From an uncultured Fibrobacterota bacterium (lineage in GTDB: Bacteria; Fibrobacterota; Chitinivibrionia; Chitinivibrionales; FEN-1185): 64,000 bases of DNA. The notes under the pieces were generated by a model, which saw only the letters and a list, made by a program, of their open reading frames with translations, did no database searches and was not told the DNA's origin. A program made the translations under genes and the position numbers. The stretch spans positions 64,001 through 128,000 of the forward strand of contig CAVWBU010000026.1 in assembly GCA_963753345.1 (NCBI GenBank). Direction: 5' to 3'. The stretch's first letter is position 1; each line of letters opens with the position of its first letter. Of this stretch, positions 3,438-55,771 are shown in pieces.

Positions 3438-3519
3438 AAATAAATCGCCCCGGTAGACTAATTATACATAGTTGGGCGCGGTTTGCGAAAATATGGGGAA
3501 AGTATATTTATTCAGGATA

Positions 3520-6500: not shown

Positions 6501-7005
6501 CTGGGGAGCGGGCCTCGACCGGACGCGCGAGCCCTGGACCGTGGGCGCGGACGGCGCCATGCTTTCCGCGTGGCGGCACGGGCTGCTTGACTACAACGAA
6601 TACGCGCTTGCCGACCGGCACGCGGTCGTCACCGAAAAATACAGCATTATCAGGCCGCTTGCGCTGTATGTAAAGGAGGCGGGCGGCTGGGCCCAGCAGA
6701 CCGGCATTGCGGCCGCGCAGGGATGGTACTACCGGGTTGTCCCGGGCGTGCAGTGGCAGGTGTTCGGCAAGGGTACGGTGGATGTTTCCTACACGTATTC
6801 GTCTGTGGGCATCAACGGCATTGTGGACCCGCGCATCGCGCAGGGATTTACAAGCGGGATCAGCCACACCATCGAGGCGACCGGCCACGTGGACTTCGCC
6901 TCGCATTTCAGCCTCGACCTCAGGTACCACGGGGAGCTGGGAAGGAACTATTACAATTCGACGGGCCTGCATGTGCTGTCAATGCAAATGAAAGCTTACT
7001 TGTAA
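3520..7005 (+). CDS. Large putative outer-membrane beta-barrel protein with SprA-like motifs
   Basis: Signal peptide (FLLLLAASAALCA), DYTVDYELGTITF motif, amphipathic strands, C-terminal MKAYL. Start chosen at ATG 3520 within ORF 3472..7005. Confidence 0.6.
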   Translation: MQEFTAKAQRPQRNTTFKTGFLLLLAASAALCASVDTVIIADGGPGPYRLGRYFIDTSSIKLSLSSPPVKDSAGRVRADSLYVPSYRFIDEVNALLFSEPLAKGSRLRVRFATFNFGMPRIYSLFDKRFAGSRDTMVIIRDSLFKVKANEFAEENVMLSGYKSINVSVGTGGAMNLEQALDVSLSGEVAPQTVLSGHLTDQGTTIEGTRELSDFDRIYVALDNPRYSLMVGDQYVYWPVAGGIFSGDQKKLTGISATYRGGSASAKTGLNGIASSRIEVKAFGAVAGGKYTIQTIKGRAALQGPYYLTGEGEQGFILPIRSSVSLTVNGEKRAEGDGADYTVDYELGTITFTPKTLIQDNDIIRVEYQYRLFDYQRTLVGANVTAALPDSSVKVDGGIWYEADDKNQPLDNSISASDLALMAQSGDSAPQHPSGRAILAVEVPQESRLRPLYMLNPQGRYVFTQYNPNTPALDTGFYAVWFREVGQGNGAYTVDQDSTGAHPELHAQIYKFVGQGLGTATDSTAVPLPQGIVNGEIRVALAPHKWVSAALDAAGTNVDKNLASTKDDNDDAGSATNARLLLGRHSIDQRSLWLSGYHLYVTPNFTREVVSTYEGGSAWDDTSADMRSGLRQAWQGSAGGTVLPGTWAEISYGQLRHDNELHTDRISGTAQATVFKYYSLEYQGSLFRHFLWGENTRRDDLDARFKLFSVDCDLVGRDEWRMFQASGNRGDAGAGASLSWAPWLLKESVFYDLHRKGDGGELAAQDTGRSLTWDQSFSHSITPAWKVDATSHYLDLDIFDSSRTSAVLVTAASDVSLPKNGFSSHQEYRINVEKASTYQTGAVYAGPGRGDAVWSDSLHTYIPKQNGDYLLQQHELYDSAGNERVRKTRLLVNWSFSPVKKRGTGILRDLSWLGSLSCEEHLSLAHPQPAASWVPGYVSLFSKNGLGDTASLRFSDLSYRQNVEWSPDSLKGVHGKLYAEPFAKKLVDYYESGVDWGAGLDRTREPWTVGADGAMLSAWRHGLLDYNEYALADRHAVVTEKYSIIRPLALYVKEAGGWAQQTGIAAAQGWYYRVVPGVQWQVFGKGTVDVSYTYSSVGINGIVDPRIAQGFTSGISHTIEATGHVDFASHFSLDLRYHGELGRNYYNSTGLHVLSMQMKAYL

Positions 7006-8203: not shown

Positions 8204-9199
8204 ATGAAGAAATTTTTCTCTGCTGTAGCTCTGTTGTCTTTTTTCTTTGCTGCGATCTCCGTTTCTGCTCAAACAGTGCCGCCCACGGCATGGCCTCATG
8301 GCGGCAAGTACGGTTTTGGCACCCGATATTACTACCTGCATAACTACACGGCAAAAGACCTGATTGTCAAATTTACCGGGGCTATTGGGTCTCCGGTAAA
8401 AGACACTTTCATGTTGAATGCGGGAAAAGACACAATATGGAATGTCTCGAACAATTGGGGGGCTGCGAGGGTCTGGGCATATTGGGATCCTAAGTTTTAT
8501 AATGGGCCTTATACTCTCGCCGAGATCACACAGCGGGGATATCAGGGTTCCGATTGGTACGATGTAAGCCTGGTTGACGGGTATAACCTGCCCATGATAT
8601 ATAAACCAGTGCCCGGCACATACATCGATAGTACTCCGTTGAACCAAGGTTGGGCTCCCCAACAAATGTGCGGGACGGCTGGTTGTCTTACTGACATGTA
8701 TCGAGCATGCCCGAAGGCAGATTTAATACTGAATGCAGCTGGAGACACAGAGGCTTGTGCTTGCCAAGACGATTCCACTTGCCGCAAAATGAAAAAGACC
8801 GCCTGTCCGCTCGCCTATAGTTATTCCGTTGACGACTTCACAAGTATAATGCGGTGCCCATCGCCAACGTTACCCGATACTATAGGGCCCGACTATATTC
8901 TCGACTTCGGCTTTCCTCCCACAGAGTCGGTCAGCAGGGAACCGACAATCAACTACAGTTTCGTTGATGCCTTGGCAGTGACTATGACAAGACGCGGCGA
9001 ATTGAAATACACGTATAACGGCGCCTCCACAAGCGCCCGGCTAGCACTGTATTCCTGCAATGGAAAATTGGTGGCCGAGGCCGCCCTCACTGGATCTTAC
9101 GGGACCATTCATGTGCCTGCTCTGGCACGAGGATTATATTTTGTGGCGCTTTCAACCGGCGAATTCGTAACAACGGCGCGGATGTTGGTTGTCAGATGA
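8204..9199 (+). CDS. Secreted thaumatin-like protein (TLP/GH152-like) with T9SS-type C-terminal domain
   Basis: Signal peptide; TLAEIT...DWYDVSLVDGYNLPM and CPLAYSYSVDD thaumatin motifs; Cys-rich; tail LYSCNGKLV...GLYFV...VVR. Confidence 0.85.
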   Translation: MKKFFSAVALLSFFFAAISVSAQTVPPTAWPHGGKYGFGTRYYYLHNYTAKDLIVKFTGAIGSPVKDTFMLNAGKDTIWNVSNNWGAARVWAYWDPKFYNGPYTLAEITQRGYQGSDWYDVSLVDGYNLPMIYKPVPGTYIDSTPLNQGWAPQQMCGTAGCLTDMYRACPKADLILNAAGDTEACACQDDSTCRKMKKTACPLAYSYSVDDFTSIMRCPSPTLPDTIGPDYILDFGFPPTESVSREPTINYSFVDALAVTMTRRGELKYTYNGASTSARLALYSCNGKLVAEAALTGSYGTIHVPALARGLYFVALSTGEFVTTARMLVVR

Positions 9200-39428: not shown

Positions 39429-39545
39429 TATGGGCAGACGGGCCTCATGGCCGGGAAAAAAAGCAGGCCGACAATCAGCTGCCATAACCGCCCAATGTTG
39501 TATTTTATCACCCTGCCTGATTTTTACCAAAGAGGAGAAACGCCC

Positions 39546-40644
39546 ATGTCCGAAAAACTCGAGAAGAGCACCCTTGTGGATCTTTCCGGCCGCGTCGACA
39601 ACCTCCGGAGGTATCTTTGACGTCGACGAAAAACGGAAATCTCTGGCCGAATGCGAGCTTGACACATCAAAAGAAGGTTTCTGGACCGACAACGAAAAGG
39701 CCCAGGCAACCCTCAAGAAGATAAAGACCCTCAAAGACGTCATCACGCTGTGGGACAAGACCAAGAAGGACAGCGACGACATCCTCGAACTGTTTTCGCT
39801 TTCCAAAGACGACAACGATCCGTCGGTGACCGCGGAGCTGCTGGAGCACGCCAAGGCGCTTGAAAAGGAAGTCTCGCATTTAGAGTTCGTACGGAAGCTC
39901 TCCGGCGAAGACGACGACAAGCCCGCCATCCTCACGGTGCACAGCGGCGCCGGCGGCACCGAGAGCTGCGACTGGTGCGACATGCTGTTCCGCATGTACT
40001 GCAGGTGGATGGAGAAAAAGGGCTATTCGTACACGGTCCTCGACAGCCAGCCCGGGGAAGGCGCGGGCCTCAAGAGCGTCACCGCACAGGTGAACGGCGA
40101 CTATGCGTTCGGCCATCTCAAGGCCGAAAGCGGGGTGCACCGGCTCGTGCGCATATCGCCGTTCGACGCGAACGCCCGCAGGCACACGTCGTTCGCCTCG
40201 GTGTATTCGTATCCGATCATCGAAAATGCCGACGACTTCGAGCTTGACGAAAAGGACATCCGTATCGACACCTACCGGTCCAGCGGCGCCGGCGGCCAGC
40301 ACGTGAACAAGACCGACTCCGCCGTGCGCATGACGCACCTCCCCACCAACATCGTGGTCGCATGCCAGAACGAGCGCTCGCAACTTAAAAACAGGGACGT
40401 TGCAATGAAGGTCCTCAAGTCGCGCGTGAGGCAGTTCTACAAGGAACAGGACGAGAAAAAACGCACCGACAAGCTTGCGGTGAAGAAAAAGATCGAGTGG
40501 GGCAGCCAGATACGCTCGTACGTTCTGCACCCTTACAACCTGGTAAAGGACCACCGCACCGACGTGGAGACCTCGAACGCGCAGGGTGTGCTGGACGGGG
40601 ATATCGATATGTTTATCGAGGCCTATTTGTTAAATTTTCAATAA
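39546..40644 (+). CDS. prfB: Peptide chain release factor 2 with programmed +1 frameshift
   Basis: MSEKLEK...RRYL then CTT TGA C (39615-39621), preceded by an internal SD GGAGGT; SPF and GGQ motifs in the +1 frame. Confidence 0.97.
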
Positions 40645-41799: not shown

Positions 41800-42204
41800 T
41801 TATTCCGGCATCAACATGGTTACATTGAGATGCACAAAGAAAGAATCTGCAATAGTATTATCATAATTTGAATAATTCATTTTGATTTCCGTATTTCCAG
41901 CACTTACCAACCAAAGGAATATATTATCTGTTCCACCACTTCCTGGCGTAACCGGCTGATTCTCCTGGTAATTTCTCTTGATTTCTTTTACCATTGATGT
42001 GTCTATCTTTACAATTTGCCAAGAATAACCTGTAGTTTGATTACTCGATAATGAAATAACAAGCGTATCAAATGTATTCAAATTTATAGTTGAATTATCC
42101 GATTCTGCTCCAATTCGAACGGATTTATAAAAACTAACATTGTTGTTGCAACAAATAAGCATAGAAATTGTTATAAGAAACATGAAGACACATTTAGCTT
42201 GCAT
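41800..42204 (-). CDS. Protease inhibitor I42 (chagasin-like) lipoprotein
   Basis: LSSNQTTGYSW and PGSGG motifs; Cys after a hydrophobic signal; markedly AT-rich. Confidence 0.8.
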   Translation of the reverse strand: MQAKCVFMFLITISMLICCNNNVSFYKSVRIGAESDNSTINLNTFDTLVISLSSNQTTGYSWQIVKIDTSMVKEIKRNYQENQPVTPGSGGTDNIFLWLVSAGNTEIKMNYSNYDNTIADSFFVHLNVTMLMPE

Positions 42205-42388
42205 GATTTGTCCTCCTTTTTCGCGCACTAACGTGAACAAGGTCAAGGCAAAATAGTAGCCCTCCCGTACACCTCGCTCCCGCTTCCGCCTGATGCCGGC
42301 CGGGCAATTTTAAGTTCCGTAAAGTAAAGCATTGACGATTGGGCGGTTGTGCCGTTCGCACCGTCCCGGCTAGAATCATCAATCACCC

Positions 42389-42859
42389 TCACATGCATCC
42401 GGCCTTTTCGTACTCGCTCACAATCGTGTAGCCCGAGGCGGCGCTGCGCTTGGCCAAAGCGCGCCTGTCAAGCGCCACCACGAGGTACTTGGTGTTTGCG
42501 TATTCGCAGGTGTACTTTGGATATTGGGTAACCGTGATGCCGGTGATTATTGCGGAGTCGTAGTCGGGGTGGGAAATTCTTGCCTGGTATATTGCCGGGC
42601 CGCCGGAAAAGCCGTAGGTGGAATCTGCGTCCAGCCAGAATGGATAGGGCTGAGCGCAGGTGTCGCAGGCGACAAGGGTGTCCCCCTTGTTATCCGTGAC
42701 TTTTATCGTTGCATGGACTATTGCCTGACCGCTTGATGCGTCCTGCAATCTGATTTTGAGCGCGGCGGACGTACATTCGGGGCAGATATAGCCTTTGGGC
42801 AAGAGGTCGCAGCCAAAGAGCATAAACAACATTAAGGGAAACAGCGAAATGATCTTCAT
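42389..42859 (-). CDS. Lipoprotein with carboxypeptidase-regulatory-like Ig domain
   Basis: Lipobox LFGC; DASSGQAIVHATIKV...YQARISHPDY. Confidence 0.65.
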   Translation of the reverse strand: MKIISLFPLMLFMLFGCDLLPKGYICPECTSAALKIRLQDASSGQAIVHATIKVTDNKGDTLVACDTCAQPYPFWLDADSTYGFSGGPAIYQARISHPDYDSAIITGITVTQYPKYTCEYANTKYLVVALDRRALAKRSAASGYTIVSEYEKAGCM

Positions 42860-42892
42860 GGGGCGCCTCCCTGGAAATATTGCTTTCCGGCA

Positions 42893-43636
42893 TCACTCTT
42901 TGAACTGCTTCAGACAATAAGATTCCCGCAGCTTCCCGCTCGAATAGTTGAGGTAGCCCACGCACCCAATGGCGGGATTGTAGTAGTAATAGCTCTCGTA
43001 GTTTGCTCCTGTCTCTTTGTAAAGGTAGCACTCCACAAAGCTGCCCGCGGTCATGGTCTGCGGGTCGGCGACAAAGAAGGCCGCGTGCGTGGACAGGATT
43101 TCCATGGTAACGGCAAACACCGGGTCGCCCGCGCTGTCCGGGTTGAACTGCCACGTTCTGCCGCTGTCGGCCGGGTAGGCGAGCCAGAGTTTTTCGGACG
43201 AAAACAGGTGCGGTTCGTTGTCGCGGTACCATCCGACCACGTATAATCCACGCTTGTCAAGCGAATAGTTCCCCCGGTGCGCCACGAGCGCGCCGCTGTC
43301 GCGGTTGTCCCATTCGTACTTGTAAACGTATGCCGCGAAGGTGTCGCCATAATTCTGCCAGGTGAGGGTCACCAGCTGCGTATCGTCGACCAGCCCGTAG
43401 CCGCTGGGAAGCGCAAGCGCCAGTTCGATTCTGCTTGGAGTAATCTTGTTGCCCAGCGAGTCGTATGCCGTCAATGAATACGTCCACGAGTTTCCGATTG
43501 CAAGCGGCAGGATGCTCGGCGTCGCGGGGAACGGAGGGTTCTGGGGCGTCCCGCTGGAGGTCGGGGCACGCAGGGCCGTGCAGCCCGCCAGAACCAGCAG
43601 GCTCGCCAGCAGAACAGTTACGCAAAGGGACCGCAT
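42893..43636 (-). CDS. Hypothetical lipoprotein
   Basis: Lipobox LAGC; LPLAIGNSWTY...YYYNPAIGCV. Confidence 0.7.
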   Translation of the reverse strand: MRSLCVTVLLASLLVLAGCTALRAPTSSGTPQNPPFPATPSILPLAIGNSWTYSLTAYDSLGNKITPSRIELALALPSGYGLVDDTQLVTLTWQNYGDTFAAYVYKYEWDNRDSGALVAHRGNYSLDKRGLYVVGWYRDNEPHLFSSEKLWLAYPADSGRTWQFNPDSAGDPVFAVTMEILSTHAAFFVADPQTMTAGSFVECYLYKETGANYESYYYYNPAIGCVGYLNYSSGKLRESYCLKQFKE

Positions 43637-43638
43637 CG

Positions 43639-45405
43639 CTAGTCCTCCTGCCGGGTAAACGACAGATGAAAATTGACAAATACGCTTCCGTCGAATCCGC
43701 CGAAGCTGCACGAAAGGGGCGGCGCCGCCGGCGTTGCCGGCAGGGGCAGCGATCCGGAATAGCCGTTGTCGAACTGGACGGGACGGTACTGCCAGCGATA
43801 CCGTATTTTTGCCCCGATGTCAAGGAACCTGAATACCGGCCAGGTGTAGCCGAGCGCCGCGTAGGGGACCGCCGCCGTCGCGGAGCGGGTCTCGGCGCCC
43901 GAGGTTTCCGCGTTGTACAGTGAATCGTAGAACACCGATGAAACATTGAGCTCCGGTTCGTATACGGCGACGCCGATGTGGACGGATGAGTTTCTCATGA
44001 ACCTGTTCTGAAACCGGTAGCCTGCTCCCAGGTCGATGATCTTCACGGTGAGCGTCTGTTGCACATGCAACCTGCAGCCGTAGGTTGCATTGTCCGGCTG
44101 GTTGAACCGTGTGCCGTCGTAATCGGCGGCGGAGGCCTGCGTGAATCCGCCGAACCCGAGGTGCGCTTCAAACCGCTGCCGCACGATCACCTCGCCCGAG
44201 ATTAGAGGCATCGCCTGGTACTTTTTGTACGAAAAGGTCGGGCTCATGGAATACGCGGTGAATCCCGCGAACCGCTGGGACAAACCGGAAGACAGGCCCG
44301 AAAGATCGTACACGCCCCATCCGCCCGAAATGCTTATGCCGGCCTGCGCGCTCCGCGCGCCGCGGCGGGGCTGTTCTCCCTTGGCAATCGACGGCGAAGA
44401 CTTGACGGCGTGAAAATCGTTCCGGTGCAGGGTGACCACGGATTTTTCCGCAACCGTGGCCTGGGCCTGAAAGCGCAGGCCGCCCTGCGCGCTGATCACA
44501 TTGTACGTTCCCTGTCCGAGCGCTATCATGACCGCGGCGGAGGGCTTTTTTGTCAAGTCGGCGACCACCGCGCCCTTGTCGCTGAGAATGGTGATGTCCC
44601 CCTCGACGTCGCCCGCAAGCATGATGCCCCGGGTGCGGATATTGAGGTCCGCGAGCACGATGTCGCCCTCGCCCTGGATGCGGAACTGGTACGAGGGATG
44701 CTGGACGCCGCCCGCGCTTCCCGCCGTGCTCGAAATGGTGCGGTTGTACGCGTACTGGTACGCTTCGCTCAGGGTGATGCGGCCGTCGCCGGCCATGTCG
44801 GCGCTGCCGCGCAGCGCGTTAACAAAGTGGAACGTGAACACCGAATTGCCCAAAAGGTCCGATTCCTGCGCGTTTTCGTTGATGGAGCTCGAGCACAAGA
44901 TCACCTGGCCCTTGGTCTTGCCGTCGTCGCGGAACAAAAAAGGCTCGTCGAGCGTGCCGCCTTTGATGCGCGTGAAGCTGCCGCTCTGGCACGCGTCAAA
45001 CACCCCGATGCGGACGTCCGCGGGAAACGACGTGAGCATTTCCTTAAGCTTTGCAAGCGGGAAATCGCCGGCGCCCATCTTGAGCGATGACGCGTCGGCA
45101 TGGCCCGAGTAATAGAACAGGAACAGGTTGTTCCCCGACCCCGAAAGGCCGCCCCCCAGATCGGCCAGGGCCTTTTCCAGGTCGGCAGGCGACTGGTCGT
45201 ACAGCACCGCAACGTGCTGCGGCGAAAAGCCGCAGAAATCGGTGAGGATGTTCTGCAGGGCGCTGCAGTCGTTCCGGACATATTTGAGCGCGGCGTATGA
45301 GGGACCCGCAGCAGTACTGTTGCCTACGAGCAGGGCGTACCGCTCCGCGACCACGCCGTGAACCGCGGCCAGAAGAACAAGGAGTATAAGCAGCCGTTTC
45401 GGCAT
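43639..45405 (-). CDS. Exported caspase-family (peptidase C14) protein with C-terminal outer-membrane barrel-like domain
   Basis: Signal peptide; RYALLVGN, FYYSGHA (His) and FDACQSG (Cys) dyad; ADMAGDGRITLSEAY; C-terminal amphipathic strands. Confidence 0.88.
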   Translation of the reverse strand: MPKRLLILLVLLAAVHGVVAERYALLVGNSTAAGPSYAALKYVRNDCSALQNILTDFCGFSPQHVAVLYDQSPADLEKALADLGGGLSGSGNNLFLFYYSGHADASSLKMGAGDFPLAKLKEMLTSFPADVRIGVFDACQSGSFTRIKGGTLDEPFLFRDDGKTKGQVILCSSSINENAQESDLLGNSVFTFHFVNALRGSADMAGDGRITLSEAYQYAYNRTISSTAGSAGGVQHPSYQFRIQGEGDIVLADLNIRTRGIMLAGDVEGDITILSDKGAVVADLTKKPSAAVMIALGQGTYNVISAQGGLRFQAQATVAEKSVVTLHRNDFHAVKSSPSIAKGEQPRRGARSAQAGISISGGWGVYDLSGLSSGLSQRFAGFTAYSMSPTFSYKKYQAMPLISGEVIVRQRFEAHLGFGGFTQASAADYDGTRFNQPDNATYGCRLHVQQTLTVKIIDLGAGYRFQNRFMRNSSVHIGVAVYEPELNVSSVFYDSLYNAETSGAETRSATAAVPYAALGYTWPVFRFLDIGAKIRYRWQYRPVQFDNGYSGSLPLPATPAAPPLSCSFGGFDGSVFVNFHLSFTRQED

Positions 45406-46157
45406 CAGGGGGTTCCTTGCTTTATGGTAAGCAGGTGCGGCACAGTCACGAATCCGCCCCCGAGGCGCAGCGTGTCGGGCAGGCTGCTCTTGTCAAGGGA
45501 CGAGCCGATGCGCCGCCGCACGTCGGAAAGCGAAAACCGCCGGTCCGAGAACACGCCCGCGAACAGCTCGGGCCCGGTGTAGTTGTCAAGCGCGATTGAA
45601 TTCGGAAGCGGGATGTCGCGGCCCTTGTCCAGTACCATTGAGGAATCGCCGGACGGCGGGAAATAGGTGGTGACGCCGCCGGCAGTGTCGATGCCCACGA
45701 GCGCGAAATGGTTGTCCGCGCCGCAGGAATAGACAAACTGGATCTTCTCTCCGGTAAAGTATTCCCGTCCGGCGCGTTTTTCGATGTCGCCGTGCCGGTC
45801 TTTGACAAGAATCGTGAGTGAGGTGTCGCCCTTGATGCGGGTCCCGGGTTCCTCCCTTGTGGCCAGGTAGAGAGAGCCCGCGCCCACGAGCAGGACGAGC
45901 GACGCAGCGAGCGCGCACACGGAACGTCGTTGGAAAAACAGGATGCGCTGCGCCGGTTTCCGGTCGTGCAGGGACGCGGCTGCTTCGAACGGGTGCGTGG
46001 CGAGAAAAGCCGCCTTTTCCGCTTCGATCGAGGCAAGATACGACCGGCACTTCCCGCATGACCCGATATGGCGCGTGATCGCCCTTTTCTTTGCGTCGCC
46101 TGTGTCCCCCGTGAAATACGAGAGAAGGTCTATTTTGTTAAACTGATGCTTTTCCAT
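45405..46157 (-). CDS. Zinc-binding anti-sigma factor (zf-HC2) with TM helix and DUF4384-like extracytoplasmic domain
   Basis: HIGSCGKC (HxxxCxxC), TM segment VCALAASLVLLVGAG, RIKG, GEKIQFVY, SIALDNYTGPE. Confidence 0.8.
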   Translation of the reverse strand: MEKHQFNKIDLLSYFTGDTGDAKKRAITRHIGSCGKCRSYLASIEAEKAAFLATHPFEAAASLHDRKPAQRILFFQRRSVCALAASLVLLVGAGSLYLATREEPGTRIKGDTSLTILVKDRHGDIEKRAGREYFTGEKIQFVYSCGADNHFALVGIDTAGGVTTYFPPSGDSSMVLDKGRDIPLPNSIALDNYTGPELFAGVFSDRRFSLSDVRRRIGSSLDKSSLPDTLRLGGGFVTVPHLLTIKQGTP

Positions 46158-46158
46158 G

Positions 46159-46656
46159 CTAAATGCCAAGCCTCTTTTTGACGGCCGGGAGGCCGTCCCT
46201 GAATCTCTTGAGGTTTCTGCGGATGGTCGCGGGCGACTGACCCGTTATCTTCCGGATCTCCTCCTGGCCGAATTCCTCGACATACGTGTAGTACACCGCA
46301 TCTCTCACCCTCTCGTTCTGGTCCGCGAAAATCAGCCGGATCAGGTCCTTTTCGTCAAGCCGTTTGCCCTCGTCAAGCCGCGCCGCCGTCTCGTCCGGAT
46401 CGATCCCGTCTGCAAACTTCCTGCTGTCCCTGAGCAAGTTGAAACAGTGCCGTTTCGCGGCGATAAAAATCCACGGGACGGTCCGTTCCTTGTTGCGGAT
46501 GGAGCCGTAGCACTCCAGCAGTTTCAGAAACACGGCCTGCAGGGCGTCCTTGGCGTCGTCATCGGAGCCCAGGATGCGACGGCAGGTGCGATAGATCAGA
46601 AACCCGTATTTTTCGTACAATTCCTTTGCCGCAACCGGGCCTTGGTCCAGAGCCAT
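46159..46656 (-). CDS. ECF RNA polymerase sigma factor
   Basis: LYEKYGFLIYRTCRRILGSDDDAKDALQAVFLK, WIFIAAKRHCFN, region-4 HTH. Confidence 0.9.
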   Translation of the reverse strand: MALDQGPVAAKELYEKYGFLIYRTCRRILGSDDDAKDALQAVFLKLLECYGSIRNKERTVPWIFIAAKRHCFNLLRDSRKFADGIDPDETAARLDEGKRLDEKDLIRLIFADQNERVRDAVYYTYVEEFGQEEIRKITGQSPATIRRNLKRFRDGLPAVKKRLGI

Positions 46657-46789
46657 ACGTTTACGCCATCCACGTTGATAAGACACGCCAGGAAGGATCA
46701 ATCGCTCACGCGATGTGCCGACAGAACCGGCACCAACAAAACGGGCGGGTGAATACCCGCCCGTGCAACAGACGACTGCAAGGGGAGTG

Positions 46790-47671
46790 TTACTTCTTTT
46801 TGAAGCTTCCCTTGAGAAAATCAAACGTGATGTACCTGTCTTTTTTGCCGCTTGTTATCGTCGAATCGTACGGGTGCTTCTCGGTTTTCACCCATTCCTT
46901 CTTCTTCCCGCTTTCCTTGAGGTTCATGTAGATCTGCTTGTCGCATTTTTCCCGCTTTACAAATATCAAAATGGTGTCGCCCACAAGGTCGTAGGTTCCC
47001 CACGACTCGAATTTCCAGTCTTCCTTGAGGCTCGGGTTGGTAAGGCCGGTCCGCTCCTCGACAATGTTCACCTTGCCATCCGTGCCGAAGGAAAAAGACT
47101 TCTTCTCCACCGCATTGGCGCCGTCCTGTTTGATGGCCTGCGACCCCGACCACGTTCCGACAAGCTTGGGGCGCAGTTCCTTGGCGAGCTGATTGCTCTT
47201 TTCGAGGCTCATGAAAATGGTGTCGGCCTCCATGGCCTTGGCCTTTGCCTCGGGCCACTTGTTCATCTTGATAAATGAGTCAACCACGGAAAGCAGGCTG
47301 TCGGCTTCCCTGAGGATCGTGCCGGAGAAATTGAGCTTTTTGTCCCCCAGGGACTTCCGCAGCGACTCCACGGCCGGTTTGACCTGCGCGGTCGTGGCAC
47401 CGTAGCCCGCTTCGGCCTTGGCGAGGATGGCCATGGCCGAGTCGTAACTTGCTTTTGCGCCGATGCCGTTGCCGAGTTTTTTATCAGTGCGGGCCTGGAC
47501 AACAAGCACCTGCGCCTCGGAGAGAAGCGAGTCCGGGACCCCGCCCTGACGCAGCGTTTCCATGCGCTGTTCGGCGTCTTTCAGTTTCTTCTCGCTCACG
47601 CAGCCGGCGACCATGAACAGCGCGACGCCGCCGACCAGTGCAACAGAAAGGGTCTTGCCCAAGATTTTCAT
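46790..47671 (-). CDS. Hypothetical lipoprotein (helical N-terminus, lipocalin-like C-terminus)
   Basis: Lipobox VAGC; LVGTWSG...GTYDLVGDTI. Confidence 0.65.
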   Translation of the reverse strand: MKILGKTLSVALVGGVALFMVAGCVSEKKLKDAEQRMETLRQGGVPDSLLSEAQVLVVQARTDKKLGNGIGAKASYDSAMAILAKAEAGYGATTAQVKPAVESLRKSLGDKKLNFSGTILREADSLLSVVDSFIKMNKWPEAKAKAMEADTIFMSLEKSNQLAKELRPKLVGTWSGSQAIKQDGANAVEKKSFSFGTDGKVNIVEERTGLTNPSLKEDWKFESWGTYDLVGDTILIFVKREKCDKQIYMNLKESGKKKEWVKTEKHPYDSTITSGKKDRYITFDFLKGSFKKK

Positions 47672-48016
47672 ACGGAGCCCTCCGGTAAAGGTTTTTCCTT
47701 TGTGATGCATACCATAGGTAAACTAATGCTCTTCTTGCGGGGATGTCAAGGGAATAGAAGCGGGGGGTGATTGGAGGAGTTATATTTCGACCAACGAATG
47801 CGCTTGAGCGGGCCTTGCGGCATGGAACCGAGGACAATGCGCCTGGAAGAGGACGGACAGATTTCGCCGGTTACCGGCGCGCACTGCTCGGTTTTCACCC
47901 AGAAAACACTTTGTTCACAAACACATTGAAAAATGGAAATTTCCATATATATTATCCTTATATACGCCGCGTGTATCAGCCAAAAGGCTTAGGCGTGTCG
48001 CCGAAATGGGGGATTT

Positions 48017-49231
48017 ATGCATAAATTGTTGCTGATTCTCATTGCTTCGATGGCGGTGTCATCTCAGGCTGCGAATCCGTACTTTATAAGTGATAGCGGT
48101 ATTTGTGCTGGAGCGTTGACCGCTAAGACATACAATGAGAAGATATCTCTTAGATATGACACTGTTTCAAGAGAAAGCACAATGGTGTGCAGTAATGTTT
48201 GCAAATGGCAGTATGTTTATAAAATAGATTCAATCTACAGTATATCTTACTTGACCGAGTACACCGCAGTTGAAAAAGTGTACTTTTCATTCTTTGACTC
48301 ACTCAACAGAGAATTCAAATTTACCATAAATGTTCCGCAAGCTACGGTTGATAGTATCTGGGGTGATACAATGTCCCTGCCCGGCTACAACAAGGTATTG
48401 TATGCGAAGATAGATGTTCCATCCGGCAACGCTGACGGGTTGTACGTAAGTTCTTATACTTTAATCGGGACCTTGAAGCAGAATTCGAATGTCAGCTTTT
48501 CTGCTGAAATCAGACCATGGACGTCAAATTGCGATTGTCCTCAACCTTGTGGTTGCAGAGATAGTACTTTGCCTCCGCAAGGCGAATGGCACTGGCTTTA
48601 CACTACCTGGACCGAAATTCAAAGTGGCGGCCATTCTTACTCCTCTGGATATTTAGATCCATCTTCTGTCGGACATAATTATTACTATGTGCTTAAAAAA
48701 GATTCGGTATATGGTTATCAGGATGCCGTTGAGCAGTTTGCTGACACTATCGGCAATGTGAACTTGTGCTACGAGTCTTTTTCTACACCCCACGCATTCT
48801 GTTCTTCGGATACAAGTGCGAAAGGCGGTTATTACTATTCTTTCATTGGTGATAAAATATTGTGCTTAGAGTATTCGGTCTGCGGCCAAGAATGCATGAG
48901 CATGACTAACTACGCATCTTATTTTCTGGCCAATAGTGCTTCTGTCGATCCCAAGGATACGCCACTGCCCAGTATGTTTAGCAAGTTTAGTGTCAAACAG
49001 TTGTCGAACAGGAATGTCCAGGTGGTATTAAACCTTTCAAAAGCTTCGGTTGTAAGCCTGATGCTATATTCCGTCTCCGGAAAACTCGTTTCAAATCTCT
49101 TCAAGCAACATCAATCGTCAGGGAACTATACGTATGTTCTCAAAATGCCGGTACTGCATGCAGGTTGCTACTTGCTTGTCCTGAAGAAGGGCGATCAAGT
49201 TGAAAGTGCTAAATTCAATTATATTCGCTAA
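48017..49231 (+). CDS. Cys-rich secreted protein with T9SS-type CTD
   Basis: Signal peptide; CDCPQPCGC; tail LYSVSGKLVS...AGCYLLVL; AT-rich. Confidence 0.7.
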   Translation: MHKLLLILIASMAVSSQAANPYFISDSGICAGALTAKTYNEKISLRYDTVSRESTMVCSNVCKWQYVYKIDSIYSISYLTEYTAVEKVYFSFFDSLNREFKFTINVPQATVDSIWGDTMSLPGYNKVLYAKIDVPSGNADGLYVSSYTLIGTLKQNSNVSFSAEIRPWTSNCDCPQPCGCRDSTLPPQGEWHWLYTTWTEIQSGGHSYSSGYLDPSSVGHNYYYVLKKDSVYGYQDAVEQFADTIGNVNLCYESFSTPHAFCSSDTSAKGGYYYSFIGDKILCLEYSVCGQECMSMTNYASYFLANSASVDPKDTPLPSMFSKFSVKQLSNRNVQVVLNLSKASVVSLMLYSVSGKLVSNLFKQHQSSGNYTYVLKMPVLHAGCYLLVLKKGDQVESAKFNYIR

Positions 49232-49282: not shown

Positions 49283-50182
49283 ATGTCAATACCACACAAG
49301 TCTCTCGAATGTGACCAAACATTCACGTCCAGAATCGTTTTCATATTCACCTGCGTAAGCCTTTTATTGCTTTTTTCAACTTGCTCCCCCAAAATTCCGC
49401 CCTATCCCTATCATCTTGTCAACCATTCCTGGGTATACTGCATAAAGCAGCACAACGATTCCCTCTATTTCTCCACCTCGGAGGAAGGCATTTTCCGTTT
49501 TCACCCTGACAATCCAAACGCAATCACCAGGGTGGGCAGATGCAGGACCTTGCCGTTCCGCTCAATCGTCTTCCCGCCCGACGGCAGGCTCCTCGCGTCG
49601 TCGTATTACAGCGGCGTGTTTGCGGCGGGCAGGGACACGCTGTTTCCCGTAAAGAACGCTTCGTACCCGGCTTGGTCCATGAAGCTTGACAAACGCGGCG
49701 CATTCTGGCTCGCCGGGACGCGCGGCGTGATGCGGCAGGCGGGCGACACCGTCGTCATGTTCAAGGACGTGACCGACGCGCACGACGTGGCGTTGTTCGG
49801 CAACGCGGTGGCGGTGGCGCACCGGCGCGGCATCACGCTGTACGACAGGGAAAGCGGCGCGCTTTCGGCGGAGTACTGCAAGGGGACGATATGCTGGACG
49901 CTTGCGGTGTTCGATTCGGTGCTGGTGGCCGGAGGGAGCAATGTCTGCGCCGTCATCGGCGCGGGCAAATGCCGCCTCATCCGCGTGCCGCCGCAGGGCA
50001 ACATGCCCTGGTCAATCGAGAAGGATTCCCTGGGCGCGATCTTCATGGGCACGCAGAAGGGGCTCTTTCGCGCGGGGCCGAACGACAGCGTGGCGCGCTG
50101 CGTGGGCCTGGAAGGCAGGTGCGTCAAGTCGGTGCTGTTCGACAGGGCGGGAAGGTTGTGGGTAGGAACGTTTTATCGTTGA
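49283..50182 (+). CDS. Beta-propeller (two-component-regulator-propeller-like) putative lipoprotein
   Basis: Repeats such as DKRGAFWLAG, DSLGAIFMGT and DRAGRLWVGT. Confidence 0.65.
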   Translation: MSIPHKSLECDQTFTSRIVFIFTCVSLLLLFSTCSPKIPPYPYHLVNHSWVYCIKQHNDSLYFSTSEEGIFRFHPDNPNAITRVGRCRTLPFRSIVFPPDGRLLASSYYSGVFAAGRDTLFPVKNASYPAWSMKLDKRGAFWLAGTRGVMRQAGDTVVMFKDVTDAHDVALFGNAVAVAHRRGITLYDRESGALSAEYCKGTICWTLAVFDSVLVAGGSNVCAVIGAGKCRLIRVPPQGNMPWSIEKDSLGAIFMGTQKGLFRAGPNDSVARCVGLEGRCVKSVLFDRAGRLWVGTFYR

Positions 50183-52657: not shown

Positions 52658-55600
52658 TCAGTATACGTCGAGATATGCCTCGCCGGTGATCCCCGAAGCG
52701 CGACCGTTCATCCTGATCACATTATCCATGGTGTTCACGACGGTCACCGCAAGTTCGTTCCGCTTCGACGAGCACGCCTCGGTGATGTCCATCTCGATGG
52801 GCTGCCACACAAACGACCCGAGTATCACGCCGTTGAGCGACACCGAAACGGGGCCCGACACCTGGGAAAACTTGAGCACGAGCCTGTTGTAGTCGCTCGG
52901 GATTTCGAAGACCTGACGATACGTCCCGCTCCCGCTCAGATAGGGATAGCCGTACTTTGTCCACGAGTCGTGGCCCGCCATGGTTTCCTGTGTGTCAATC
53001 ACCCAGCCGCTCGATCCCTTGGCGATGTTGAACGCGCCCGCGATAAGGGGCGGATACGTGATGGCCGCCGGGTCGAACACAAACCCGAGCGTCCGGATGG
53101 AAATCCGGTTGAGGCCCTTCCGCAGGTACTCCTTGATGGTGAAACAGGGCGCGCTTGCGCAATAGAAATCGAGGCAGGGCTTGCAGGCATGCTGCGCGGA
53201 AACGGACGCAGACGGCGCGTACCCCGGCAGCGGCGGCACGGAGGGGGCGGGAGCAGGGAACAGCGACAGGATGCCCGCGGCGTCCTGGAAGCACGTCTCG
53301 TTGATGCGCGTGCCGTTGATATTCACTTCGAGCGCCTTCTCGCTAATTGACAGATCGGAAGTCGCGCCGGTCATGCCGCAGAGGGACATGATGCACACCG
53401 GCGGCAGTTCCTTCACTTCGAAATAGGCCTCGTAGAAATGCGAGTACCCGCCCGATTCCCTCGACAGCCCGATGCGCGTGCTCCATGAGGCCAGCGGCAT
53501 CGGATTGAGCGAAGCGGCCGCAAACTGCCACTGGTCCTTGAGAACGATCCGGTAGTTGCGCTGAACCGTGCCGATCGCGTTGATGGCCGGCCGCTTGCCT
53601 TTTGCGACCGGCGACACGTTCATTTTCTGGGCCGAAGCCGCGATGAAGTAGGTCTGCCGCGGCGAGAAATTGAGATTGATCCTGCACAGGTCGTCTTTTC
53701 TCTGTATGTCCAGGATTTCGTGGGTTTCGCCCGAAGCGCAGTCGATCCAGTAGAAGTGTCTCTCCTCGGGCACTTCGACGGCGGCGAAATAATCCTGCGC
53801 GTCCGATTTGTTCTGCAGCACGTACACGGTCTGGGCCGCCGCGCTTCCGCAGCCCGCCACTATGTCGGGGCATTTTTTGCCCTGAACGGTGACCGAAACG
53901 GCGGAGGTGACATGCGCAAGCATGCTTTCGAGGTCCTTGGCCGGCGATACGAACACCCTGCCCGATCTTGAACGCAGGATCCTGTTGACGCGCGCGGTGA
54001 ACGACGGCGTCATGCCGTCGTCAACGGTTCCCTGCGGCGCCTCCTCGATGAAAACGATGGTCGATTTTTTGGAGGCCATCCGTTCCAGATAGACAAAGAG
54101 GTTCTTTGAAACGAGCCTCGAATAGGGAATGATAACCGCCTGGTAATTGCCCTTCCGCACCTTGCTCGGCGAATTGAACTCGCCGTTTGAAAACAGCGAG
54201 CACGACAGGAGCTGGTCTTCACTCACGATGTCGAAGTCGAGGTTGAGGCGCGCAAGCTCGTCCATGGTCTTGTGAAGCGCGAGCATTCCTTTGCGCACCG
54301 GATCGTCGTTACTGGGAAGGTAGTCCGCCACAAGGGACTCGGTCGGCATGAGGATGGCCACCTGCCGGGAAAGCTGGAGAGGCGCAATCAGTTTCTTCAC
54401 GCGCGCCGCGTACTCGGTGAGGGCCTGTGCATGGTGGGCGCCCGGCGTGTACCGCGACAGGTTATAGGGCGTCGAGATGCAGCTGCGGTGGTCCACCGAG
54501 AAAAAGCATCCGTCAAGTAGTATCCGGGAAGGCCCGGCGAGAGCGGCTTGGTCAATTTCGCTTCTCAGGTTCTGGAACGTAGCGGCGTTTCCCTGGCGCG
54601 ACCTTCCGATGACGGTGATGGTCTCCCGTTTGAACTCCCTTGCGTTGGCGTCCGCCATCGCCCGGACGGTTCCGGCGTTCTCCTCGCTTCCTTCCTGGTT
54701 TTGAATGCCCACGGCGGTGAAATTCTGATCGGGTATCACGAGACAGTCGCGGAGCATGTTCGCGGATTTCTGCACCGGCCGTTCGGGACACAGCACCCAG
54801 TGGGAAAGGCGGTACTTCTTGCACCATCTGTCAAGGACAAGCGTGAAGCGTTCGTGAAGCGACTGCACCATGAACGAATAGACATGGGGCCGGTTTCGGG
54901 CCTCACGCGCTTCACAGGTGAAGAACAGGCTTGGAAGAAGCGGGACAAGATTTTTCTTGTACTTTGACCGGTATTTCACGACGAGATCGTCGTCCCACGG
55001 GATCGCATTGTCTGCCGGCAGGCACGCCGGAACTTCGCTGATGAATCCTTCGAAGGTCGTCGGCATATATCGGGAGAATTTGCGTTTGAATGATTCCCAC
55101 ACCTTGTCGGTGTACAGGCGCGCGGTCTGCTCCCGGAAGACGTTGGGAGCGTAGTGTCCGAGGGGATCCATCGCGTATTTTTTTCTGAAGATCATCACCT
55201 GCCACTGGCCCGCGGGCGCTCTCCATGAAAGCATATTCGTGTCGGAGGGAATGGCAAATGTTTTTGTTCTGGAGGATATGAGCCTTTCGTTTTCGACTTT
55301 GGCGATCTGGACGATTGCCGTTGAGGGATCGGCAATTTTTTTCTCGTACAGAGTTTTACTGGGGATGATCTCGATATGCTCGAGCACAAGGCATTGAGAA
55401 CGGATGTGCCTGTTGACCTGGGCAAGACGGTCGAGGGCGTCATGTGAGGGCACCGAGAAATCTTCGGCGAAGCGTATCCCTATCTTGGCTTTTTGCGCAA
55501 TCTGAAGCGCGCCGTTGAAGAGATCGAAGAATTCCTCGGAAAGGAAGGATGGAGTCATATCTCTTCCGGCCTTGATGGCCACGCCGCCGAAACCTTTTTC

Positions 55601-55771
55601 AATAAGGAAATTGAGCTGTTTGGCGACCTCTTCCCGGGTTATGCAGAGGTTCCAGATCCACATTGCCCAAGGTTTAAGTTCCCGGGGAAAGCTTACTGCC
55701 TGAGGGGCAGGCTTTTGAGCCGGATGATGGGGATGTGCTGTCTTTGGGTGATGTCTTGCCGTCTTACTCAA
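52658..55771 (-). CDS. GH106-like glycoside hydrolase homologue, cytoplasmic, with degenerate motifs
   Basis: WAMWIWN...GFGGV...FLSEEFF barrel start; VAILMP/DFDIVSED domain; C-terminal GYPYLSGSGTY...NELAVTVVNT sugar-binding domain; no signal peptide. Confidence 0.7.
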   Translation of the reverse strand: MSKTARHHPKTAHPHHPAQKPAPQAVSFPRELKPWAMWIWNLCITREEVAKQLNFLIEKGFGGVAIKAGRDMTPSFLSEEFFDLFNGALQIAQKAKIGIRFAEDFSVPSHDALDRLAQVNRHIRSQCLVLEHIEIIPSKTLYEKKIADPSTAIVQIAKVENERLISSRTKTFAIPSDTNMLSWRAPAGQWQVMIFRKKYAMDPLGHYAPNVFREQTARLYTDKVWESFKRKFSRYMPTTFEGFISEVPACLPADNAIPWDDDLVVKYRSKYKKNLVPLLPSLFFTCEAREARNRPHVYSFMVQSLHERFTLVLDRWCKKYRLSHWVLCPERPVQKSANMLRDCLVIPDQNFTAVGIQNQEGSEENAGTVRAMADANAREFKRETITVIGRSRQGNAATFQNLRSEIDQAALAGPSRILLDGCFFSVDHRSCISTPYNLSRYTPGAHHAQALTEYAARVKKLIAPLQLSRQVAILMPTESLVADYLPSNDDPVRKGMLALHKTMDELARLNLDFDIVSEDQLLSCSLFSNGEFNSPSKVRKGNYQAVIIPYSRLVSKNLFVYLERMASKKSTIVFIEEAPQGTVDDGMTPSFTARVNRILRSRSGRVFVSPAKDLESMLAHVTSAVSVTVQGKKCPDIVAGCGSAAAQTVYVLQNKSDAQDYFAAVEVPEERHFYWIDCASGETHEILDIQRKDDLCRINLNFSPRQTYFIAASAQKMNVSPVAKGKRPAINAIGTVQRNYRIVLKDQWQFAAASLNPMPLASWSTRIGLSRESGGYSHFYEAYFEVKELPPVCIMSLCGMTGATSDLSISEKALEVNINGTRINETCFQDAAGILSLFPAPAPSVPPLPGYAPSASVSAQHACKPCLDFYCASAPCFTIKEYLRKGLNRISIRTLGFVFDPAAITYPPLIAGAFNIAKGSSGWVIDTQETMAGHDSWTKYGYPYLSGSGTYRQVFEIPSDYNRLVLKFSQVSGPVSVSLNGVILGSFVWQPIEMDITEACSSKRNELAVTVVNTMDNVIRMNGRASGITGEAYLDVY

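Follow-up and report, generated by a model that had tools for sequence, protein, structure and literature searches.

An operon for an extracytoplasmic function sigma factor, a membrane anti-sigma factor, and an exported caspase: a candidate protease-controlled envelope signaling system conserved across phyla

Introduction

According to the pertinent sections of the respective reports, DdvA of Myxococcus xanthus is a transmembrane anti-sigma factor with a periplasmic TPR-CHAT caspase-like domain, for which self-cleavage before RseP is proposed (PMC11506125), and the sigma inhibitor Csx30 is cut by the caspase-like Csx29 (PMC10028731). One group of Csx30 C-terminal domains is described as DUF4384 (10.1101/2022.08.17.504292), a domain reported as fused to 23 cyanobacterial orthocaspases as well (Table 1 of PMC8283722; PMC7475262). 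For ECF54, a group of extracytoplasmic function (ECF) sigma factors, the sections concerned list CHAT, subtilase or carboxypeptidase genes in the context and describe the group as lacking an anti-sigma factor (PMC8999054). Here, we analyzed a stretch of 64 kb (the window; positions 64,001 to 128,000 of the forward strand of contig CAVWBU010000026.1, assembly GCA_963753345.1) from an uncultured Fibrobacterota bacterium (Chitinivibrionales; FEN-1185), and all coordinates of its features are positions within this window. It carries an operon for an ECF sigma factor, a single-pass anti-sigma factor, and an exported protease of the caspase family. We propose, with a probability of about one half, that site-1 cleavage of the anti-sigma factor is carried out by the envelope-anchored caspase. 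The analysis covered gene content, how well the trio and its motifs are conserved, and the folds and motif-bearing loop flexibility predicted for the proteins; every proteolytic step, the direction of signaling, the cue, and the regulon are inferred. To our knowledge, bacteria have caspase homologues in abundance, but a substrate or physiological role has been defined for few of them; likewise, we know of no identified site-1 protease for many ECF sigma/anti-sigma pairs.

The locus resembles DdvS/DdvA in that an ECF sigma factor would be held by a zinc-type single-pass anti-sigma factor, and in that, in both proposals, a periplasmic His/Cys protease of the caspase family opens the cascade by cutting a flexible juxtamembrane linker, RseP coming second. 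The profile of the window anti-sigma factor also weakly matched the DdvA N-terminal domain (8rlz_A, E = 0.24). In contrast to the CHAT domain of DdvA, which is fused to the anti-sigma factor, the protease here has a polypeptide of its own; it is of the Peptidase_C14 metacaspase/paracaspase type, with a predicted anchor at the outer envelope. The outer domain of the anti-sigma factor is a DUF4384-like sandwich of ~135 aa, compared with a region of ~900 aa in DdvA, and no defense island was found near the operon, where the PADLOC defense-system models gave only two chance-level matches to unrelated models (E = 0.005 and E = 0.0014). With 250 aa and no protease domain, the window anti-sigma factor does not belong to the DdvA type. 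Craspase (type III-E CRISPR; Csx29/Csx30/Csx31/CASP-sigma (RpoE)) shares the theme of a caspase-like cut that relieves the inhibition of an ECF sigma factor; it is, however, cytoplasmic, RNA-guided, and CRISPR-linked with a CHAT protease, whereas the system here would act in the envelope through a membrane anti-sigma factor and has no CRISPR genes. The proposed logic matches regulated anti-sigma proteolysis in general, and DdvA and Craspase are similar in enzyme class and partner domain; the system itself is neither of the two, as it lacks a CHAT domain, a fusion, and CRISPR genes and is assigned to the envelope. The DUF4384-orthocaspase fusions, the DUF4384-type Csx30, and DdvA support the reading of the caspase as a site-1 protease.

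Other regulators are comparable in part. In RseA/DegS/RseP and RsiW/PrsW, as proposed here, a periplasmic site-1 cut of a single-pass anti-sigma factor leaves a short stub for the site-2 protease; the site-1 enzyme here would be an operon-encoded cysteine protease of clan CD instead of a serine (DegS) or PrsW-type enzyme, and an RseB-like partner is lacking. The chain of an outer membrane protein, an inner membrane sigma regulator, and an ECF sigma factor recalls FecA/FecR/FecI, but Pfam and NCBIfam scans of the operon proteins detected neither a TonB-dependent transducer nor a FecR domain, and it is the outer component that bears the protease. MALT1 (caspase-Ig3), metacaspases, and orthocaspases share with the window protease the fold, the order of caspase and then Ig-like domain, the His/Cys dyad, and the Asp two residues before the Cys, and likely also the preference for a basic P1 residue; the window protein differs in being exported with a C-terminal envelope anchor. 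As in ECF54, a conserved protease gene proposed to control the sigma factor lies beside an ECF sigma gene, whereas the window operon contains a clear anti-sigma gene.

Results

The sigma, anti-sigma, and caspase genes form a conserved trio

Loci were collected as one genome per species, which gave 41 loci (L001 to L041), and their genes were counted by tblastn with the window proteins and by profile searches on six-frame fragments. Trio counts were taken over L001 to L038, the other three (L039 to L041) being distant caspases alone in a different context. A member of the anti-sigma family adjoined the caspase in 38/38 loci and was located directly upstream on the same strand in 35 of them (E<=1e-53). 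An ECF sigma gene was adjacent in 36/38, and in the two exceptions (L029 and L034) the contig starts at the anti-sigma gene. Three Myxococcota loci have a different order, with the caspase gene followed by a gene X, the sigma gene, and the anti-sigma gene. Trio loci were found in Fibrobacterota, Treponema/Spirochaetota, Gammaproteobacteria, and Myxococcota, including cultured isolates that are non-pathogenic, for example Treponema bryantii (L030 and L032). An earlier note on this DNA, which had proposed a caspase-triggered trans-envelope signaling system, had named a lack of conservation of the trio as one finding that would refute it, and these counts do not refute it. Judged by gene neighborhood, the trio is a conserved unit across phyla.

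The protease carries invariant Lys-Gly motifs in predicted flexible segments

The 588-aa protease matched Peptidase_C14 with 43.8 bits (cut-off 21.4), and H102, C139, and D137 were invariant in 62/62 caspase homologues, with the His/Cys dyad kept in 25/25 cross-phylum sequences; the dyad had been read as intact in the earlier note, rightly so. Its relatives in the PDB at the sequence level were metacaspases alone (7qp0, E = 1.1e-7), whose DSCHSG aligned with the DACQSG around C139. Foldseek placed MALT1 paracaspase caspase-Ig3 constructs at the top (E = 2.3e-9) and metacaspases and caspases next, while the match to the NCBIfam EACC1-type caspase model (78.4 bits) fell below its cut-off of 140. 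By these family matches, the protease is a member of Peptidase C14 (caspase family, clan CD). Among the candidates scored, 258 relatives were found at E<=0.001, and the 120 listed were mostly 560 to 600 aa long; the names that homologues bear in their sources likewise point to Fibrobacterota/Chitinivibrionales as the origin of the window.

The protein was modeled with AlphaFold2 (AF2) from 62 sequences at a mean predicted local distance difference test score (pLDDT) of 83.1. The model displayed a signal-peptide helix, the signal peptide itself being called by eye as were the lipoboxes of the lipoproteins described below, and a caspase fold at residues 22-227, in which C139 ends strand 131-139. 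Residues with pLDDT <50 were confined to 146-162, 337-351, 550-559, and the last four (585-588). The first of these segments is opened by R146-I-K148-G149-G150, in which K148, G149, and G150 were each kept in 62/62 homologues and R146 in 59/62, and just past its end K163-T-K165-G166, with G166 in 62/62, closes the loop that follows the catalytic Cys. R-x-K-G-[GA] was present in 25/25 cross-phylum caspases. Similarly, the second segment, a hinge before the C-terminal domain, contains K342-G343, which was retained in 62/62 caspases amid variable neighbors, and a [KR]-G pair occurred in the hinge of 24/25 cross-phylum caspases, the exception (L037) being a broken sequence. In caspases, inter-subunit processing takes place in the loop after the catalytic Cys. 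D137, the Asp two residues before the catalytic Cys, we take to be one of the acidic S1-pocket residues of basic-P1 enzymes. Orthocaspases cut after basic residues (PMC6426788). The protease is thus likely of the metacaspase/paracaspase type with a predicted preference for Lys/Arg at P1.

The linker of the anti-sigma factor holds the best-conserved residues of the protein

The AF2 model of the anti-sigma factor, built from a 148-sequence alignment (mean pLDDT 88.8), had N-terminal helices at residues 8-16, 21-33, and 35-54 and a membrane helix at 77-100, followed by an unstructured linker (101-112, block pLDDT 64) and a sandwich that begins at 113. The zinc-type motif H30-x3-C34-x2-C37 was read from the sequence, and hydropathy and AF2 agreed on one membrane helix, as the earlier note had claimed for both. 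Against the PDB, the top three matches of the anti-sigma profile were the anti-sigma domains of RslA, DdvA, and RsiW, all weak (E 0.14-0.24). The window protein had no match to zf-HC2 of Pfam, and the best orthologue reached 21.5 bits (cut-off 22.2). With a helical domain, HxxxCxxC, and a gene beside that of the sigma factor, it has the features of class I of the zinc-binding anti-sigma (ZAS) factors, zinc binding being predicted. The family comprised 8645 representatives at E<=0.001, of which 5528 remained at E<=1e-10; the motif counts below were made over 151 sequences, that is, the window protein and the best 150 of the 8645 representatives, all of which are 175 to 323 aa long. HxxxCxxC was found in 67/151; the orthologues of Treponema and Gammaproteobacteria lack it. 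Orthologues from Treponema scored 21 to 24 bits against DUF4384, and three related cluster representatives bear a precomputed PF14326 assignment.

K109-G110 in the linker was invariant in 26/26 aligned anti-sigma factors. Over the 151 sequences, K109 was present in 151/151, G110 in 150/151, and R107 in 127/151, and the Lys was located 9 to 38 residues past the membrane helix (median 16, n = 151), compared with 11 in the window protein. In the 148-sequence alignment, with a mean column identity of 24%, only four columns were invariant: K109, G110, D191, and E197. Myxococcota anti-sigma factors keep the Lys-Gly pair as well, as NRIKGG, LDAKGG, and SRAKGG. Thus, by alignment, the best-conserved feature of the anti-sigma factor is K109-G110 in the linker, outside any domain. 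In the window, T-R-I-K-G-D of the anti-sigma factor corresponds to T-R-I-K-G-G of the caspase loop, and K109-G110, matching the Arg-x-Lys-Gly motif of that loop and the Lys-Gly pair of the hinge, makes a concrete candidate cleavage site.

D191 and E197 (45567-45587, minus strand), acidic residues of the sandwich that are invariant in the 148 sequences, form a motif LDxxxGxE. No fold in the PDB matched the sandwich at E<=1e-3, and the best matches were lipid-binding Ig-like proteins such as RhoGDI (1.7e-3), NPC2, and UNC119 (E to ~1e-2). Conceivably, the DUF4384-like domain has a ligand, or it docks onto the caspase in the manner of a receptor, pseudosubstrate, or inhibitor, so that the anti-sigma factor regulates the caspase or both read one ligand independently. 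The invariant acidic pair and these lipid-binding folds, weak as the matches are (E ~2e-3 to 1e-2), would suit such a role, as would the attachment of DUF4384 to both Ser/Thr kinases and orthocaspases, which is what is expected of a sensor module. Nevertheless, the lack of a fold match at E<=1e-3 speaks against it, and the top conservation falls in the flexible linker outside the sandwich, which suits a cleavage site over a ligand pocket. We give this kind of control slim odds and prefer cleavage of the linker by the caspase. Other searches touched on the same pair of proteins. The anti-sigma sandwich and the middle sandwich of the caspase were not homologous by hhalign (probability 2%), and the region of the middle sandwich matched no Pfam family; no fused anti-sigma-caspase relative was found among proteins of 439 to 2000 aa, which is weak evidence; and a tblastn search of plasmids with a gammaproteobacterial anti-sigma factor gave no match.

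The C-terminal domain of the protease is a probable, interchangeable envelope anchor

By atlas features, residues 346-588 of the protease were assigned at 0.96 to outer membrane protein (OMP) beta-barrel clusters of 205 to 225 aa, the nearest being small OMP_b-brl/OmpA_like barrels, and one cluster was 94% PF13505. AF2 predicted 9 to 10 long strands at pLDDT 90-98, the last of which alternates hydrophobic residues (V575, V577, F579, L581, and F583), and one caspase homologue is named "opacity protein-like surface antigen" in its source. No Pfam or PDB sequence match was obtained for the domain, and a crude scan for strand amphipathicity flagged just three strands, weakly. In the Treponema, gammaproteobacterial, and L023 caspases, which are 730 to 774 aa long, the [KR]-G hinge is followed by surface repeats of the LA_2272 type (cut-off 25 bits; L028 37.1, L030 30.5, and L023 27.0 bits, with L024 and L021 below). 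The Treponema and gammaproteobacterial C-termini were homologous to each other (99.8%), whereas the Fibrobacterota C-terminus was homologous to neither of them nor to the myxobacterial one (probability <1%). Because the Fibrobacterota C-terminus is unrelated to those of the other phyla, the conserved core appears to consist of the signal peptide, the caspase, the Ig-like domain, and the hinge, with an interchangeable anchor. The barrel-like C-terminus of the earlier note therefore stands as likely for this lineage (atlas 0.96, AF2 strands) and falls as a conserved part of the system, LA_2272-type repeats taking its place elsewhere.

A signal peptide, a passenger of caspase and Ig-like domain, a linker, and a barrel follow one another in what is generally known as an autotransporter-like order. 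A caspase laid out in this way could be displayed on the surface, or released from it at K342-G343, and never meet the periplasmic domain of the anti-sigma factor. The invariant K-G in the pre-barrel hinge would fit such a layout, and so would the name of surface repeats that NCBIfam gives to the Treponema and gammaproteobacterial C-termini. The domain, however, matched no autotransporter family even at E<=5, its closest atlas clusters are the small barrels named above, and in AF2 the segment before the first strand (337-351) was disordered and lacked the linker helix of autotransporters. By the lack of a family match and of this helix, the protein is not a classical (type Va) autotransporter. 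In addition, the conserved partner domain is periplasmic. Surface display is improbable in view of these results, and a periplasmic encounter of caspase and anti-sigma factor is retained as our reading.

The sigma factor and its candidate promoter

The sigma factor matched Sigma70_r2 (E = 2.3e-10) and r4_2 (E = 4.5e-4) of Pfam with no r3, as well as TIGR02937 (ECF) at 62.8 bits (cut-off 42.9), and by these matches is an ECF (group IV) sigma-70 factor. None of the NCBIfam models for named ECF subgroups was matched above its cut-off, the best being NF058625 with 51.9 bits against 130. Upstream of the gene, TGAGCGAT-N13-CGTGTC was the sole match in the 64-kb window (expected 0.11; at least one match in 11/100 shuffles). 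Its TGAGCGA box was found in exact form upstream of sigma in 14/19 Fibrobacterota loci and both boxes in 10/19; a promoter of this type was missing from the three Fibrobacter-type loci and L016. Treponema-type loci have another ECF-like motif, G[GT]AACA ... [CT]GTTA, which was recognized by eye in 10/13 upstream regions. Conserved promoter motifs upstream of sigma fit positive autoregulation, as far as motifs can indicate it. No regulon member was located in the window, and the promoter has no second copy within the 64 kb. An additional match in L001 was dropped because it sits in a coding-like stretch and has no conserved counterpart in the window, and an additional match in L016 was likewise dropped. 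Short tandem repeats (ACGATT, ACGAGC, and TTCAGA[AG]) lie directly 5' of the TGAGCGA box in L018 (~900-1000) and L020 (~2000-2100); they might vary in length and tune sigma expression.

The position of the caspase gene downstream within one autoregulated operon could also mean that the caspase is an output. Another protease would then trigger the sigma/anti-sigma pair under envelope stress, and the caspase and lipoprotein 1, which is encoded next to it, would be up-regulated effectors that, for example, degrade envelope proteins or cause cell death. ECF operons are generally known to contain their own targets often, and the cleavage of the anti-sigma factor by the caspase is itself a proposal. 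What an output would leave unexplained is the invariant K-G of the linker, which matches the motifs in the protease loop, and the recurrent association of DUF4384 with caspases, in fusions and in Csx30; the trio also survives the change of gene order in Myxococcota. We hold such a role of the caspase to be unlikely, if well worth weighing, and favor its action on the anti-sigma factor.

Proposed mechanism and its weight

At rest, the cytoplasmic helical domain of the anti-sigma factor would hold the ECF sigma factor at the inner membrane, with the DUF4384-type domain in the periplasm. The caspase, exported via its signal peptide, would be held at the outer envelope by its C-terminal anchor, a probable outer membrane beta-barrel here and LA_2272-type repeats in other phyla. 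Upon an envelope cue, the caspase may mature by cutting its own loop at R146-x-K148|G and K163-x-K165|G and probably frees itself from the anchor at the K342|G343 hinge. This release is proposed because, in geometric terms, a linker of ~15 residues would be too short for the anchored caspase to get to a site that lies 11 residues away from the inner membrane. The freed caspase would then cut the anti-sigma factor at K109|G110, 11 residues outside the membrane helix, and the short stub would pass to a site-2 (RseP-type) protease and cytoplasmic proteases, so that the released sigma factor could drive its own promoter (TGAGCGAT-N13-CGTGTC) and a further regulon. The sensing of a surface cue, which the earlier note had ascribed to the caspase, found no support.

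Several points weigh against this mechanism. Adjacency and motifs agree equally well with other directions of control, and adjacency was counted starting from the caspase loci. The K-G pair might instead serve structure or binding, or be cut by a different protease, and no co-variation was seen, as three loci with Q at position 107 of the anti-sigma factor retain R146 of the caspase. The predicted Lys/Arg specificity rests on family resemblance and on the S1-pocket residues described for such enzymes. The window anti-sigma factor scored 23.2-24.6 bits against DUF4384 (PF14326), under the Pfam gathering cut-off of 27, for which reason the wording "DUF4384-like" of the earlier note is apt; moreover, DUF4384 also occurs on Ser/Thr kinases and hence may be a general sensor domain. 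Finally, a membrane beta-barrel, though the most likely form of the C-terminal domain in this lineage, is a prediction from atlas features and AF2 strands.

If true, the proposal would add a clan CD cysteine protease to the known site-1 enzymes, and DUF4384 would gain a function, namely that of the domain by which caspases address sigma inhibitors. It would also provide a free-standing envelope counterpart of DdvA and Craspase and tie envelope signaling by evolution to the caspase-controlled sigma inhibitors of these systems. In the operon, a single protease is compactly paired with a single candidate substrate, in which one bond (K109|G110) is predicted to be scissile, and there is one promoter and one catalytic Cys. 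We would propose only tentatively, with more doubt than confidence, that it represents an undescribed and widespread switch of ECF sigma factors by periplasmic caspases, with thousands of family clusters spread over four or more phyla, in which metacaspase-like proteases with interchangeable anchors at the outer envelope respond to an envelope cue by releasing themselves at an invariant Lys-Gly hinge and then cut the anti-sigma factor at a matching invariant Lys-Gly beside the inner membrane to start intramembrane proteolysis. A search of full-text literature, which did not cover the ECF-reclassification supplementary tables that may list it, found no account of a free-standing C14 caspase with a DUF4384 anti-sigma factor and an ECF sigma factor.

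Lipoprotein 1 belongs to the Fibrobacterota system, and the I42 gene is probably foreign

Lipoprotein 1, whose lipobox Cys was invariant in the alignment, was found in 17 loci, all of the Fibrobacterota type, which corresponds to 17/18 with room downstream (the downstream ORF [open reading frame] of L019 was unrecognized); it was not found in the loci of other phyla. It had no Pfam or PDB match, and the atlas gave a weak lead to DUF3108-like. Its occurrence solely beside the barrel-type anchor suggests that the two work together. In Myxococcota loci, the X gene between caspase and sigma (11593-12474, plus strand, in L036) encodes an exported, Cys-rich protein of ~290 aa with no Pfam match, and this Cys-rich protein occupies the place held by lipoprotein 1 in Fibrobacterota.

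Lipoprotein 2 had a weak match to CarboxypepD_reg (E = 0.007) and a native-like GC content at third codon positions (GC3) of 0.70. The I42 protein, with an atypical lipobox "LICC", matched Inhibitor_I42 at 52.3 bits (cut-off 27.2), and its gene has a GC content of 0.32 and a GC3 of 0.29, compared with a GC3 of 0.70-0.80 for the operon genes. Neither gene was detected in any of the 41 loci. In the closest locus, L001 (caspase 77% identical), the genes for NIF3, release factor 2 (RF2), and ribonucleotide reductase come directly after lipoprotein 1, and in the window they come after I42. From their absence in 41/41 loci, the order in L001, and the composition of I42, we regard I42 as inserted from a foreign source and lipoprotein 2 as an addition specific to the lineage. 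The I42 gene looks recently acquired at its place between lipoprotein 2 and NIF3, and no papain-like peptidase that could be its target was seen in the window.

Both genes could still be part of the system, with I42 restraining the caspase, as they come right after the other genes on their strand, with no terminator predicted there from lipoprotein 2 to I42. Apart from their absence from 41/41 loci, the contiguity in L001, and the deviating composition, chagasin-family inhibitors are generally known to act on papain-like (clan CA) and not on clan CD enzymes, all of which renders a restraining I42 highly improbable. The doubt that the earlier note had cast on a link between I42 and the caspase is thereby upheld; of the lipoproteins it had included in the system, lipoprotein 1 stays, in Fibrobacterota alone, and lipoprotein 2 (0/41) drops out. 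The conserved system, as delimited by gene content, is the trio, plus lipoprotein 1 in Fibrobacterota.

Gene layout and features of the locus

The six genes (sigma, anti-sigma, caspase, lipoprotein 1, lipoprotein 2, and I42) all lie on the minus strand and span 41800..46656, just as first annotated. The sigma and anti-sigma genes meet at TAG-c-ATG (1 nt between stop and start), the anti-sigma and caspase genes overlap by 1 nt (TGATG), and the caspase and lipoprotein 1 genes meet at TAG-cg-ATG (2 nt between stop and start). By these junctions, the first four genes are translationally coupled, whereas gaps of 33 nt and 184 nt precede lipoprotein 2 and I42, respectively; the "tightly coupled" operon described earlier is hence confirmed for the former and not for the latter two. 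The terminator-like hairpin upstream of sigma, as read from its stem and T-run, is the end of the upstream lipoprotein gene (47710..46790) and sets the 5' boundary of the operon. That gene (46790-47710, minus strand) encodes a 306-aa lipoprotein with no family match, and synteny with it was seen only in the two closest loci, L001 (80% identity) and L002 (51%). Coordinates are compiled in Table 1.

Table 1. Positions in the window, strand, and basis of the operon features
Feature	Position	Strand	Basis or remark
Terminator-like hairpin	46741..46764	-	10-pair stem with 8 GC pairs, then T-run
Candidate ECF-type promoter, TGAGCGAT-N13-CGTGTC	46682..46708	-	3' end 25 nt upstream of sigma ATG
ECF (group IV) sigma factor, 165 aa	46159..46656	-	Pfam and TIGR02937 matches
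Single-pass anti-sigma factor, 250 aa	45405..46157	-	Pfam, profile, and AF2 evidence
Zinc-type motif H30-x3-C34-x2-C37	46047..46070	-	Read from sequence
Transmembrane helix, residues 77-100	45858..45929	-	AF2 helix; hydropathy maximum at 80-98
R107-I-K109-G110 in juxtamembrane linker, candidate site-1 cleavage motif	45828..45839	-	Conservation and AF2
Periplasmic Ig-like beta-sandwich, DUF4384-like, residues 113-246	45420..45821	-	Pfam, alignment, AF2
Exported caspase-family protease, 588 aa (signal peptide, caspase, Ig-like, hinge, C-terminal beta domain)	43639..45405	-	
Caspase (Peptidase_C14) domain, residues 21-222	44740..45345	-	Pfam, alignment, fold
Catalytic H102	45100-45102	-	
Catalytic C139	44989-44991	-	Within D137-A-C139-Q-S-G
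Post-Cys loop, residues 146-165, candidate autoprocessing loop	44911..44970	-	Bounded by R146-I-K148-G149-G150 and K163-T-K165-G166
Middle Ig-like beta-sandwich, residues 236-334	44404..44700	-	AF2 strands, Foldseek
Flexible hinge, residues 337-351	44353..44397	-	Holds K342-G343 (44377-44382), candidate release site
C-terminal all-beta domain, residues ~353-583, probable outer membrane beta-barrel anchor	43657..44349	-	Atlas features, AF2
Lipoprotein 1, 247 aa, orphan family	42893..43636	-	LAGC lipobox; starts 2 nt after caspase stop
Lipoprotein 2, 156 aa, Cys-rich	42389..42859	-	LFGC lipobox; lineage-specific add-on
Chagasin-family (I42) inhibitor gene, 134 aa	41800..42204	-	Judged unrelated to the system

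Other genes of the window

The neighboring genes belong to the core chromosome (gyrA, gyrB, recF, ribonucleotide reductase, RF2, mfd, recG, and surA). In the RF2 gene (39430-40644, plus strand), CTTTGAC at 39615-39621 places TGA in the upstream frame and GAC in the frame of the long ORF, and constitutes the programmed +1 frameshift site that is classical for prfB. On the other side of the operon, a low-GC gene (0.42) at 48017-49231 (plus strand) encodes a C-terminal sorting domain of the type IX secretion system (TIGR04183, 28.3 bits; cut-off 23), and the next ORF (49283-50182, plus strand) has WD40/Reg_prop repeats. Two very long ORFs, at 3472-7005 (plus strand, 1177 aa) and 52658-55771 (minus strand, 1037 aa), had no Pfam match at E<=1e-4. 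Two proteins with PIN domains (PIN_10 and PIN), encoded close by each other at 15280-15681 (plus strand) and 15779-16183 (minus strand), are probably parts of toxin-antitoxin modules. A thaumatin-family protein (8204-9199, plus strand) adjoins a GH64 beta-1,3-glucanase (9225-10871, minus strand), a pairing that suggests attack on fungal or laminarin-type glucans.

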